Shown here: piece after piece, positions 44,860-48,716 of the stretch
How positions within the stretch are numbered: the stretch's first letter is position 1
How the letters are laid out: every line of letters begins with the position of its first letter
Translations under genes and position numbers: made by a program
The notes under the pieces: model-generated
The model's database searches: none
What the model was told of the DNA's origin: nothing
Seen by the model: the letters and a program-made list of their open reading frames with translations, nothing else
From: an uncultured Alistipes sp.
GTDB lineage: Bacteria > Bacteroidota > Bacteroidia > Bacteroidales > Rikenellaceae
Reading direction: 5' to 3'
Assembly (NCBI GenBank): GCA_948603215.1
Contig: CAPECJ010000002.1
Span: 171,805 to 235,804, forward strand
Length of the DNA: 64,000 nucleotides

Positions 44860-46323
44860 ATGAAAGATAGGAAAGGCTTGGCAAGATGGATGTTCCTCAT
44901 GGTATTCGTAGTACCGATGTTTGCGTCGTGTAGCGATGATGACGCCGATAATGCTGTGTTGTCATTCGATGTACCTTCGGTCTATTTTTCTGGCGCGGGA
45001 GCGCAAAAAACGGTCTTATTCTCGGCGCGTGGGGTCGAGCGGCTCTATGTTTCAGCTAAACCCCAAGGCTGGAGCGATGACAATGTGGTGCTGGATGCCG
45101 AGAATCGGTCGGTGATAATTACCGTACCGGAGCAGTCTGCCGATGAGTCGGTTGCTTCATCCGGAACGATTACCCTTGCCGGGTATTCTTCGTCCAATCG
45201 CTCCGTGAGCGCTTCGCTGTTTGTCGGGATTGCCGGTGAAAAAATCTTGCAAGGCCCGGCCAACAGCTTTATTGCCAGCGAGAAAGAGACGCATTATACG
45301 TTCGTTCCAATGCGGGCCGACGGATCCGATGTGCAACCTGTAAGCGTCGGTGTGATATGGCAGAGTGCCGGCAAACTATTGCAATACGTCGATCTCGATG
45401 AGGATAATCGGATTTCGTTTTATGTGGGAGCCGATGCCGACCGCACGGATGAAATCAAACGAGGCAACGGGTTGATCGGTGCTTATGATGCGGCGGGCAA
45501 CCTGTTGTGGAGTTGGCATATCTGGACGGTGCCCTACGATCCGGAGCAGGATATGGTAGAATGGAATGGCTATCGGTTGATGAGCCGTAACCTCGGGGCG
45601 CTCAACAATGCCAATACGACGGCTGAGGAGCGTCTTGCCTCCTATGGATTGTTCTATCAATGGGGGCGCAAGGATCCGTTTGTTGGCCCCGGTAGCTATC
45701 GGGCGAATAACGGAAGTTCGGCGCTTATCTACAATGCGGATGGGGCAAGTACGAAATTGACGTTCGTCGAATCCTCGGCCGAAACTGGAACGGAAAGCTA
45801 TGCGTTGCAACATCCGCTGTGTTTTATCACGGGCGTAGGTTCGAATGGATACGATTGGTTGTGGGATGATTCCGCTGTGGGTTGGAGCGAGCAAAATGAT
45901 CCGTGCCCGTATGGGTGGCAGGTCGCACCGGCAGAAGCATTCGTCGGCTTGCAGTTGGACGGACAGCCGACCGCTGCCGATTGCGATCTTTTCGGGTGGA
46001 AGTTGACCGATGGTGCGACGAGCTCGCTTTTCATGGCTGCCGGACGCCGTGTTTATCTCAATGGCAAGATTCAGAATGTCTATCAACCTGCAATAGTTTC
46101 GGACGCAGTTGCCGTGCGCAGCAATCCGGCAGAGGAAGCGCAACCGTGGGTCGGTCTTTATTGGACGGCGGATGCTGCGATCGACCGGAACTCGAAGGCG
46201 CTCTATTTCTGGTACGACAAGAAAAGCGCGCTTGAAGGAGAAACCGAGACAGGCAGGGTTTTTCCTGCAGCATCTTATGCACGAGCCAACGGAATGTCGG
46301 TTCGCTGCGTGAAAAAGCAGTGA
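44860..46323 (+). CDS. Surface lipoprotein with 'FYQWGRKDPF' domain (Fib_succ_major/fimbrillin-associated type)
   Basis: Lipobox FASC followed by acidic SDDD; WSWHIW, MSRNLGA, GLFYQWGRKDPF, DPCPYGWQV and GMSVRCVK motifs. Confidence 0.75.
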   Translation: MKDRKGLARWMFLMVFVVPMFASCSDDDADNAVLSFDVPSVYFSGAGAQKTVLFSARGVERLYVSAKPQGWSDDNVVLDAENRSVIITVPEQSADESVASSGTITLAGYSSSNRSVSASLFVGIAGEKILQGPANSFIASEKETHYTFVPMRADGSDVQPVSVGVIWQSAGKLLQYVDLDEDNRISFYVGADADRTDEIKRGNGLIGAYDAAGNLLWSWHIWTVPYDPEQDMVEWNGYRLMSRNLGALNNANTTAEERLASYGLFYQWGRKDPFVGPGSYRANNGSSALIYNADGASTKLTFVESSAETGTESYALQHPLCFITGVGSNGYDWLWDDSAVGWSEQNDPCPYGWQVAPAEAFVGLQLDGQPTAADCDLFGWKLTDGATSSLFMAAGRRVYLNGKIQNVYQPAIVSDAVAVRSNPAEEAQPWVGLYWTADAAIDRNSKALYFWYDKKSALEGETETGRVFPAASYARANGMSVRCVKKQ

Positions 46324-47332: not shown

Positions 47333-48409
47333 CTACAATTTGCGATAGTGACAATAAAGCAGTTGTCCGTCGTCATCGTGTAGGTGCATGCCGCCGCCTA
47401 AACAATAACGGAACATCTTGCAGTTTGCGCATTCGCCTTGTCTGGCCCATTCGCGGTTGCGGAACGGTTCGAACCGATGCTCCCAAACCTCCCAGAAATC
47501 ATCTCGATAGATATTGCCTTGATGGAAGTTTCCGCGAATGGATGTGCATCCCGAAATGGAGCCGTCGACCCGTATCGAAGCGACCGAAATTCCGGCTGCG
47601 CATTGATAGAAATTATCGCGCACTTCGGCTTCATAGCCGCCTAAAAATCCTTCACAGGCATAACTGACATCGATTCGGCCTTCGCGTCGGGTGCGGCGGA
47701 TGAACTCCAACAGCGAACGGAATTGCTCGTCGCTCAGATATAACGAAGCGTCGTTACGCGCACGACCCATCGGGAAAATCGAGAAAATGCGCCAATGTCG
47801 AACCCCCTCGGCAATCAACAAGTCGCAGAACTCCTCCAAATGCGGAATCAGAGCACCTGTCGCGCAGGTGATGACGTCGTAGGTCAGATTCGGCTCCCGT
47901 ACGATGCGTCGGATGGCTCGCAGGGCCCGTTCGTAACTCAAGGCGTTGCCACGAATGTGATTATGCTCCCGCTCGAATCCGTCGAGGCTGATGGAAATAC
48001 TCCGCAGACCGGCCTGCATCAATCGGTCGAGCCGCTGCGGAGTTAGCGCCATGCCGTTAGTGACCATTCCCCACGGATATCCGCGACGGGTTACCTCGGT
48101 TCCGGCCTGCTCCAAATCCTCGCGGACGAGCACCTCGCCACCGGAAAAAATGATAAGCACCTCCGTCGGATCGACATGAGGCGTTATTTGGTCGTCGAGC
48201 ACTTTCAGAAAATCGGCCAACGGCATGTCAGGCACTTGCGGATCGACGCGACAGTCGCTGCCGCAATGTCGGCACGCGAGATTGCAGCGCAATGTACATT
48301 CCCAAAAAAGCGTGTTCAACCGATGTTCGGCAACCGTTGTGGTGTAAAGGTCTGAGAAAATATTGAGGGCCCATCGTTTTCGGAGGCCCAACCAGCGGCG
48401 GGAGAACAT
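47333..48409 (-). CDS. Radical SAM/SPASM enzyme of the rSAM-lipoprotein system (TIGR04133-like; splicease-related)
   Basis: WECTLRCNLACRHCGS (CxxxCxxC), SGGE, SISLDG, SPASM CAAG...DGSISGC and CANCKMFRYCLGG motifs. Confidence 0.88.
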   Translation of the reverse strand: MFSRRWLGLRKRWALNIFSDLYTTTVAEHRLNTLFWECTLRCNLACRHCGSDCRVDPQVPDMPLADFLKVLDDQITPHVDPTEVLIIFSGGEVLVREDLEQAGTEVTRRGYPWGMVTNGMALTPQRLDRLMQAGLRSISISLDGFEREHNHIRGNALSYERALRAIRRIVREPNLTYDVITCATGALIPHLEEFCDLLIAEGVRHWRIFSIFPMGRARNDASLYLSDEQFRSLLEFIRRTRREGRIDVSYACEGFLGGYEAEVRDNFYQCAAGISVASIRVDGSISGCTSIRGNFHQGNIYRDDFWEVWEHRFEPFRNREWARQGECANCKMFRYCLGGGMHLHDDDGQLLYCHYRKL

Positions 48410-48416
48410 ACGAATC

Positions 48417-48686
48417 TTATTCTTCCGTCGATTGTGAATCCGGAGTTGTTGCCGTAGTTGTAGTACTGTCTTGCTGCAAGGCGGAATCCAACGGACTGTA
48501 ATTAGTTTTTGCAGCTGGAGGACGCACGCCATACATAACGATGATGGGGCGTGCCACCGAGACCGTATCGCTTGCAGCCTCCGCATCAACCGACCCTTTC
48601 GAGGGGGCGTTCTTGACGGTGGAACAAGCTGCCGAAAAACCCATAAGAGCAGCTAAAGCGAGTTTCAGTTTTCGGTTCATGGCCAT
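48417..48686 (-). CDS. Small lipoprotein, putative radical SAM substrate (TIGR04134-like) with MYG motif
   Basis: MNRKLKLALAALMGFSAAC lipobox; IIVMYGVRPP; 7 nt upstream of the rSAM gene. The start may be 48680. Confidence 0.8.
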   Translation of the reverse strand: MAMNRKLKLALAALMGFSAACSTVKNAPSKGSVDAEAASDTVSVARPIIVMYGVRPPAAKTNYSPLDSALQQDSTTTTATTPDSQSTEE

Positions 48687-48708: not shown

Positions 48709-48716
48709 CAAATATA
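48709..48716 (-). promoter_or_regulatory. -7 promoter element for the lipoprotein-rSAM operon
   Basis: TATATTTG on the minus strand. Confidence 0.6.

Follow-up and report, generated by a model that had tools for sequence, protein, structure and literature searches.

A minimal lipoprotein and its TIGR04133 radical SAM/SPASM enzyme in Alistipes: a presumed Tyr-Gly substrate site and a candidate splicease-type modification

The window analysed here is a 64,000-nucleotide (nt) stretch of a contig from an uncultured Alistipes species (source assembly 1.9 Mb, 92.6% complete), and all positions follow its own numbering. On its minus strand, at 48686-47333, lie two adjacent genes, one for a small lipoprotein (P0002) and one for a radical S-adenosylmethionine (SAM) enzyme with a SPASM domain (P0001), and this pair is the subject of the present work (Table 1). 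An earlier note on the same DNA had described the pair, and its description was confirmed: the lipoprotein with an FSAAC lipobox, the 7-nt spacer, and the enzyme with CxxxCxxC and SPASM are all present, as is the patch IIVMYGVRPP with its MYG in P0002. The lipoprotein product reads MAMNRKLKLALAALMGFSAAC-STVKNAP...ARPIIVMYGVRPPAAK...TTTTATTPDSQSTEE. As homologues begin MNRKLKL, its true start is likely the ATG at 48680, giving 87 amino acids (aa). The close spacing of the two genes suggests that they are co-transcribed. The earlier note had also credited the pair with a promoter of its own; the match upstream of the first ATG is there, and TAnnTTTG occurs across the window more often than expected (41 vs 21 +/- 4), although such a consensus match is no proof of a promoter. 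The flanking genes encode a convergent Sir2 deacetylase, a divergent cold-shock protein, phosphofructokinase (PFK) and a CDGSH protein, all functionally unrelated to the pair, which is therefore self-contained. No protease, transporter or cofactor-pathway gene was found among these neighbours, and the absence of a nearby PlpY or RiPP recognition element (RRE) gene and of a leader peptidase, claimed before, was borne out (RiPP, peptide made by the ribosome and modified after translation).

Table 1. Features of the lipoprotein/radical SAM gene pair, in the direction of transcription (window positions).
Feature	Position	Strand	Remarks
Promoter match TATATTTG	48709-48716	(-)	First ATG lies 22 nt downstream; fits the Bacteroidota -7 consensus TAnnTTTG; consensus match only
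Mini-lipoprotein gene P0002, presumed substrate	48417-48686	(-)	Open reading frame (ORF), 89 aa from the first ATG
Lipoprotein signal peptide	48624-48686	(-)	Ends in lipobox G-F-S-A-A-C, Cys21
Presumed modification site M51-Y52-G53-V54-R55-P56-P57	48516-48536	(-)	MYG at 48528-48536, inside IIVMYGVRPP
P0002 stop TAA	48417-48419	(-)	
Spacer, 7 nt, P0002 stop to P0001 ATG	48410-48416	(-)	
Radical SAM/SPASM gene P0001	47333-48409	(-)	358 aa; TIGR04133 member; ATG at 48409
Radical SAM [4Fe-4S] motif C42-N-L-A-C46-R-H-C49	48263-48286	(-)	Followed by G50-S51 (common to spliceases), then family-specific C53
SPASM region	47351-47656	(-)	C252, C270, C288, C327, C330, C336, C353; G340 at the fourth Cys of CX2CX5CX3C

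The enzyme was assigned with profile models. P0001 matches TIGR04133 (rSAM_w_lipo) with 598.3 bits (E 3.7e-180) over model positions 1-349 of 350, against a curated cut-off of 425 bits, and a six-frame search of the genome agrees; the Pfam models Radical_SAM (PF04055, 66.6 bits) and SPASM (PF13186, 31.4 bits) match as well. The next-best families score far lower and close together, namely TIGR04103 (120.8 bits), AhbD (119.4 bits), TIGR03913 (116.6 bits) and NirJ2 (115.9 bits). Alistipes proteins 77-99% identical to P0001 are named TIGR04133. Members above the cut-off occur in 85 of 401 sampled Bacteroidales genomes, sometimes two per genome, and in three of 400 sampled other genomes of the phylum, all three of them Bacteroidales. 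Bacteroides thetaiotaomicron has members of both TIGR04133 and TIGR04134 above the cut-offs. At E <= 1e-30, 324 clusters of a 50%-identity representative library were recovered, and the extended family is therefore wider than Bacteroidales. The pair is catalogued in NCBIfam as an rSAM/lipoprotein system by a purely comparative definition, with no function assigned; the models are hypothetical equivalogs, and the Prokaryotic Genome Annotation Pipeline (PGAP) names the products 'TIGR04133 family radical SAM/SPASM protein' and 'radical SAM-associated putative lipoprotein'. One TIGR04133/TIGR04134 pair outside Bacteroidota was found on the Treponema saccharophilum plasmid pTS1 (L065:1318-3610). 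Its motif is LTSC-Y-G-M-P, in which the lipobox Cys itself takes the place of X in x-Y-G, and it adjoins a gene for an Mpi-family DNA invertase, a hint that the pair may be expressed phase-variably or have been acquired by horizontal transfer.

The earlier note had pointed to the TIGR04133/TIGR04134 models of rSAM/lipoprotein pairs; the enzyme belongs to the first, but P0002 has no match to TIGR04134 (150 model positions, cut-off 39.8 bits) even at E <= 10, nor to any NCBIfam or Pfam model. Partner lipoproteins from other loci behave according to their length: those of 129-176 aa score 44-106 bits on TIGR04134, and those of 62-95 aa do not match. The longer partners carry a prealbumin/CarboxypepD_reg-like beta-sandwich, which P0002 lacks. 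As the model matches long partners and not short ones, P0002 is, to judge from its sequence, a minimal partner, in which the signal peptide is followed by a disordered linker, the motif and a low-complexity tail. An alignment of 84 Alistipes homologues has twelve invariant columns (L14, G16, F17, S18, A20, C21, and V24, inside or beside the signal peptide, and M51, Y52, G53, V54, and P57), and R55 is conserved in at least 90%. The remainder of the mature peptide is hypervariable, with indels, leaving M-Y-G-V-(R)-x-P as its sole conserved element. Nine database homologues have no YG and end in unrelated sequence; they look like truncated or chimeric contigs.

The residues after Cys21 also bear on where the product would be found. 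In Bacteroidota, surface export of lipoproteins is signalled by K-(D/E)2 or Q-A-(D/E)2 types of sequence after the lipobox Cys (Lauber et al., PMC5080379). P0002 continues as CSTVKNAP, with no acidic residue until +13, so that the lack of an acidic signal noted earlier stands, and for this reason the mature lipopeptide (~66 residues) probably faces the periplasm. Many longer partners are acidic directly after the Cys (e.g. CDSDDPGVEYG and CSNEDDQN) and may be surface exposed. At 44860-46323 on the plus strand, 2 kb from P0002, the window encodes a 487-aa lipoprotein with a weak Fib_succ_major match, whose strongly acidic, surface-export-type start (C-SDDDADN) contrasts with the non-acidic CSTVKNAP.

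We then compared the motif across related loci, taking those ORFs that adjoin the enzyme on its own strand in 31 loci of Bacteroidales and on the Treponema plasmid; locus L006, where the sequence ends 350 nt upstream of the enzyme, is uninformative, and the counts take loci with enough upstream DNA. The earlier note had staked its proposal on conservation of YG in neighbouring lipoproteins, and a same-strand lipoprotein with x-Y-G was found in 32/32 loci, besides the invariance of M, Y, G, V, and P in the Alistipes alignment. The motif lies 1-35 residues (median 8.5) after the lipobox Cys in proteins that range from 62-aa lipopeptides to 277-aa proteins, and several partners hold two or three copies. 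X is E in 20, M in six, L in two, V in two, A in one and C in one; Pro follows two residues after Gly in 30/32. By comparison, the proteins of the window give a chance background for YG of 0.28% per residue, with YG.P once in 17,426 residues, and a YG within 45 residues is expected by chance in ~12% of proteins. The motif alone stays invariant within a variable, indel-rich peptide, a pattern that fits a putative short linear site which the enzyme would recognise in a disordered chain. L023 and L027 had appeared to be loci without a YG partner, which was ruled out: the YG lipoprotein sits two genes upstream. These loci (L023:508-1489 and L027:388-1466), the window's nearest sampled relatives, hold three-gene operons of a YG lipoprotein, a 164-176-aa lipoprotein without YG.P, and the enzyme.

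On this evidence the lipoprotein is very probably the substrate and M-Y-G the site. The enzyme has no signal peptide and needs Fe-S clusters, SAM and a reductant; if it modifies the lipoprotein it must therefore do so in the cytoplasm, before Sec export. Conceivably the unusually conserved signal peptide is also read by the enzyme. G-[F/Y] recurs just before the lipobox (23/32 partner lipoproteins across the order), and the signal peptide is invariant in Alistipes while the linker varies, but the AlphaFold2 model described below does not dock it.

To ask what the reaction might be, we compared P0001 with its nearest relatives. TIGR04103 presumably corresponds to IPR026482. PlpX belongs to IPR026482 (PMC11002830), and the spliceases PlpX, PcpX, RhaX, RcsX, and RasX excise tyramine at XYG; type II spliceases need no Y protein, and whole proteins with a splice tag can be spliced (PMC11414181, PMC11626197, PMC9811515, PMC10533398). 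PlpX-family enzymes were reached by a genome search with the PlpA3 precursor sequence, taken from a paper supplement. In the Xenococcaceae locus that this search gave, a TIGR04103 enzyme (806.7 bits) is encoded together with a Nif11 precursor whose sequence ends in ...AGGRFNVIYGSPWKPWPWPF and with a small PlpY-like ORF; nineteen further cyanobacterial loci were reached as well. P0001 aligns end to end with the Xenococcaceae PlpX orthologue (E 3e-32), and both carry WE-x-TL-x-CNLAC-x-HCGS and a C-terminal YCH[HY]R. In a tblastn search of P0001 against 72,556 plasmids, the next relatives come directly below the TIGR04133 matches, at 113-127 bits and 86-97% coverage. They are GDL-motif maturases (TIGR03913), a Nostoc 'nif11 maturase 3' (TIGR04103), an Aureibacter GDL-like enzyme and an Agathobacter rectalis enzyme. 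MftC, NirJ, TIGR04053, and TIGR04347 follow at 65-99 bits.

Two trees, a careful maximum-likelihood (ML) tree of 58 sequences and a quick one of 120 rows, place these groups. The eight outgroup sequences, from about six families, were MftC, NirJ, a NirJ1/AhbC-like and a NirJ2/AhbD-like enzyme, two TIGR04053 members, TIGR04347 and one PqqD-associated enzyme. In the ML tree the extended TIGR04133 family (99/99) and a splice clade of TIGR04103, TIGR03913, and the Agathobacter enzyme (97/94) are each recovered, and the branch that parts both of them from all outgroups has support of 100/99 (98 in the quick tree). Judged from these trees, TIGR04133 and the splice clade are sister groups, unless the root falls on either group's own stem. 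Column by column, the two share HC-G-S, W206, and A217. G50 occurs in 0% and S51 in 37% of outgroup rows, and the G-S after the cluster motif is, as the alignment reads, a shared derived feature of TIGR04133 and the splice clade. The earlier note had matched two motifs of P0001 to the PlpX branch; the likeness in WExTLxCNLACxHCGS is real, but CxAG...DGxIxGC is generic to SPASM. Its placement of the enzyme within the splicease branch was right as to the nearest neighbour and wrong as to membership.

The substrates of the sister clade resemble the window's motif. Precursors beside 18 cyanobacterial TIGR04103 genes have [L/M]-Y-G-V-[V/I] cores, with examples such as QPLYGVVWPP, QAMYGVVRGD, LMYGVIRIDD, and PKYGGVRPP, and the M-Y-G-V of P0002 resembles these [L/M]-Y-G-V cores. 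Further cores in the clade are VIYGSPW and the end of a Nostoc precursor, ALYGLPPELF. Of 29 sampled spliceotide-type motifs, 19 have L and four have M as X, and 22 have V after G. The GDL maturases are each preceded by three DUF1843 peptides (L066:1528-2243 and L068:1647-2360; Azospirillum, Aureibacter) with x-Y-[G/A/M] within their first 12 residues, as in the starts MLYGGA, KPYGVA, QPYGAG, and PMYAAS. As all of these peptides carry x-Y-[G/A/M], a Tyr-centred site seems common to the whole clade. In Agathobacter rectalis (NZ_CP143948.1), an unannotated 35-aa ORF at L069:2309-2416 (+), MFNLEELSLEFVKISELKTSKNLFGPVMYGTGVRM, ends in GPVMYGTGVRM and lies 80 nt upstream of the radical SAM/SPASM gene, whose product falls in the splice clade (TIGR04103 235 bits, TIGR03913 225 bits); a major facilitator superfamily (MFS) transporter gene comes next. 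A Firmicute that is common in the human gut thus has a candidate cluster of the spliceotide type.

Taken together, these comparisons make tyramine excision, the chemistry of the spliceases, the leading candidate for the reaction, at just under an even chance. In its most far-reaching form, this reading would have a spliceotide-type edit moved to the general lipoprotein pathway, where the signal peptide would serve as the leader, Sec would export the product and signal peptidase II would remove the leader, and the outcome would be a lipid-anchored alpha-ketoamide in the envelope; we give this form a probability of roughly 0.4. In the pathway that we propose, the prolipoprotein is made in the cytoplasm, where the radical SAM/SPASM enzyme would act on the unfolded chain at the invariant M-Y-G-V-R-x-P. 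Sec export, lipidation of Cys21 and cleavage of the signal peptide by signal peptidase II would follow through the general lipoprotein machinery, which would do the work for which ordinary RiPP clusters have their own transporter and leader peptidase. The mature lipopeptide would stay at the periplasmic side, carrying an electrophilic ketoamide on a lipid anchor. The beta-Met ketoamide and the protease inhibition that the earlier note drew from M-Y-G splicing remain inferences, as does the excision itself, and the biological role, as a protease inhibitor or a reactive handle, is a matter of speculation.

Several observations weigh against this model. The identity between P0001 and the Xenococcaceae orthologue is only 28%; the score on TIGR04103 stands against a cut-off of 725 bits and about equals that on AhbD; and the P0001 group forms its own clade (99/99) that is not nested among the spliceases, in a tree that is unrooted and has only eight outgroup sequences. 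All TIGR04133 rows have Gly at position 340, at which 24/24 splice-clade rows have Cys, while TIGR04133 conserves C38 (87%), C53, C182 (96%), and C252, at which spliceases have I, A, Q, and N. With Gly in place of the fourth Cys and a Cys set of its own, the first auxiliary cluster must be ligated differently from that of the spliceases. In solved SPASM enzymes this cluster lies nearest the substrate, and a difference in its ligands could mean different chemistry. Furthermore, no PqqD-like/RRE (Y protein) gene was found within 2 kb of the pair, and P0002 has no obvious leader helix. An AlphaFold2 model was made from a 103-row alignment for P0429, a database ORF in which a TIGR04133 enzyme reads into a downstream prolipoprotein. 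The enzyme part is mostly above 90 in predicted local distance difference test (pLDDT) score and a beta-sandwich begins at residue 413, but residues 363-410, which span the linker of the read-through, the signal peptide, an acidic linker, and E-Y-G, are below 50 with no confident docking of the motif, a weak test as the lipoprotein half is almost unaligned. In this model E-Y-G is predicted to sit in a flexible stretch directly before the beta-sandwich. Finally, the literature search found nothing on the gene pair and no experiment reported for any TIGR04133 member, although Scott et al. (Chem 2022) lay outside that search.

Two side observations concern the same proteins. C38, C53, C182, and C252 (window 47351-48295) are candidates for extra or rearranged cluster ligands or for an H-atom donor. 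P0429 (526 aa) and P0481 (508 aa) are TIGR04133 enzymes fused to a downstream TIGR04134-type prolipoprotein, in reverse gene order, and are either natural read-throughs or gene-calling artefacts.

The rival that survives best keeps the substrate and the site, and shares all of the pairing evidence with the splicing model, but assumes another radical reaction at or beside Tyr-Gly: a carbon-carbon or carbon-heteroatom crosslink of Tyr, a three-residue cyclophane in which Tyr is joined to the C-beta of the residue that follows Gly, hydroxylation or desaturation at C-beta, or epimerisation. We consider this a serious possibility, though clearly below an even chance. The separate clade and the different auxiliary-cluster Cys pattern, with four conserved Cys that spliceases lack, would fit it, and radical SAM epimerases use a conserved Cys as H-atom donor. 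A Foldseek search with the family model gave SuiB, SkfB, BlsE, DesII, and PqqE as the nearest solved folds, of which SuiB, SkfB, and PqqE are crosslinking maturases. Pro two residues after Gly is found in only 3/29 spliceotide-type cores, compared to the 30/32 among TIGR04133 partners, so the recognition rules differ. In addition, the residue following Gly is never Gly in the 32 lipoprotein motifs and thus always has a C-beta, a weak point in view of the small sample. Triceptide cyclophane formation, however, tolerates other aromatics, and the strict Tyr (no Phe, Trp or His) and strict Gly seen here suit excision better than a cyclophane. The crosslink families also score below TIGR04103 and TIGR03913, and the characterised spliceases of the sister clade (TIGR04103, PlpX family) excise tyramine at the same X-Y-G (PMC11414181, PMC9811515).

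It is unlikely that the lipoprotein is not a substrate at all and that the enzyme acts on a small molecule, a cofactor or another protein, with the lipoprotein as a co-regulated receptor, carrier or anchor that binds the product via Tyr-Gly. AhbD and NirJ, the nearest non-peptide relatives, have tetrapyrroles as substrates, and their scores on P0001 come close to that of TIGR04103; the missing docking in the AlphaFold2 model is compatible with such a role, and the lipoprotein is secreted whereas the Fe-S enzyme stays in the cytoplasm, so that the two end in different compartments. Yet otherwise unrelated partners have no conserved feature in common but a short linear motif within a stretch that is disordered, in some of them in 2-3 copies, which fits a recognition site and not a binding fold. 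Throughout the sister clade the enzymes act on peptides that are encoded next to them and carry the same motif, and no cofactor-pathway genes are nearby. That the pair is a decaying or inactive remnant, as the 1.9 Mb genome and a P0002 without the beta-sandwich of TIGR04134-type partners might suggest, is very improbable, since both frames are intact with all cluster cysteines present, the enzyme is 77-99% identical across many Alistipes, and the minimal lipoprotein type is kept with an invariant motif in 84 aligned homologues.

If tyramine splicing is indeed the reaction, ribosomal beta-amino-acid ketoamides would not be limited to secreted cyanobacterial and proteobacterial peptides but would be common in envelope lipoproteins of dominant gut bacteria, with a lipid-anchored ketoamide in about a fifth of sampled Bacteroidales, common human gut genera included. 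The keto group could then be a tethered protease inhibitor or a covalent periplasmic handle. Such splicing would represent a new kind of post-translational modification for bacterial lipoproteins and a RiPP-like pathway in which export and cleavage are left to housekeeping machinery, and the enzyme would offer a compact, single-enzyme, leader-free tool for installing reactive ketoamides in proteins. Should the chemistry differ, a large uncharacterised radical SAM family would still gain a defined substrate and site that are directly testable. According to a review (PMC10849128), Scott et al. (Chem 2022) looked for YG motifs in the neighbours of all rSAM-SPASM proteins, with candidates from 189 genera and 27 pairs confirmed as the outcome; that survey may already cover TIGR04133 pairs.

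Compared with known systems, the pair is closest to the TIGR04133/TIGR04134 system, with which the full-member enzyme, the lipoprotein-then-enzyme order, the tight spacing and the Bacteroidales distribution all agree; the partner here differs in being a minimal 87 aa and in its motif, M-Y-G-V-R-x-P vs E-Y-G-[TSV]-P. The solved maturases SuiB (5v1s/5v1t), SkfB (6efn), and PqqE (6c8v) resemble the enzyme in fold (E 1e-14 to 1e-11), with a partial TIM barrel and an auxiliary-cluster domain, but at 17-20% identity, and they are crosslink-forming enzymes with RRE domains or separate chaperones. No splicease structure turned up when the PDB was searched by sequence and by fold. The TIGR03913 GDL-motif maturase with its DUF1843 peptides is, with TIGR04103, the closest named relative (113-124 bits, tblastn), but lies inside the splice clade, has a longer enzyme, of 474-516 aa, and has as presumed substrates cytoplasmic-type, 56-64-aa helical peptides without a signal peptide. 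Finally, the spliceases PlpX/PcpX with PlpY/PcpY (type I, Pleurocapsa) and RhaX/RcsX/RasX (binary, type II) likewise place a radical SAM/SPASM enzyme beside a gene-encoded X-Y-G substrate, with a native M-Y-G or L-Y-G followed by V, and type II does so without a Y protein, as at the window locus. There the substrate has a Nif11/NHLP leader, whereas here it has a lipoprotein signal peptide; the window pair comes without a protease or transporter gene, and its product would stay lipid-anchored in the envelope.

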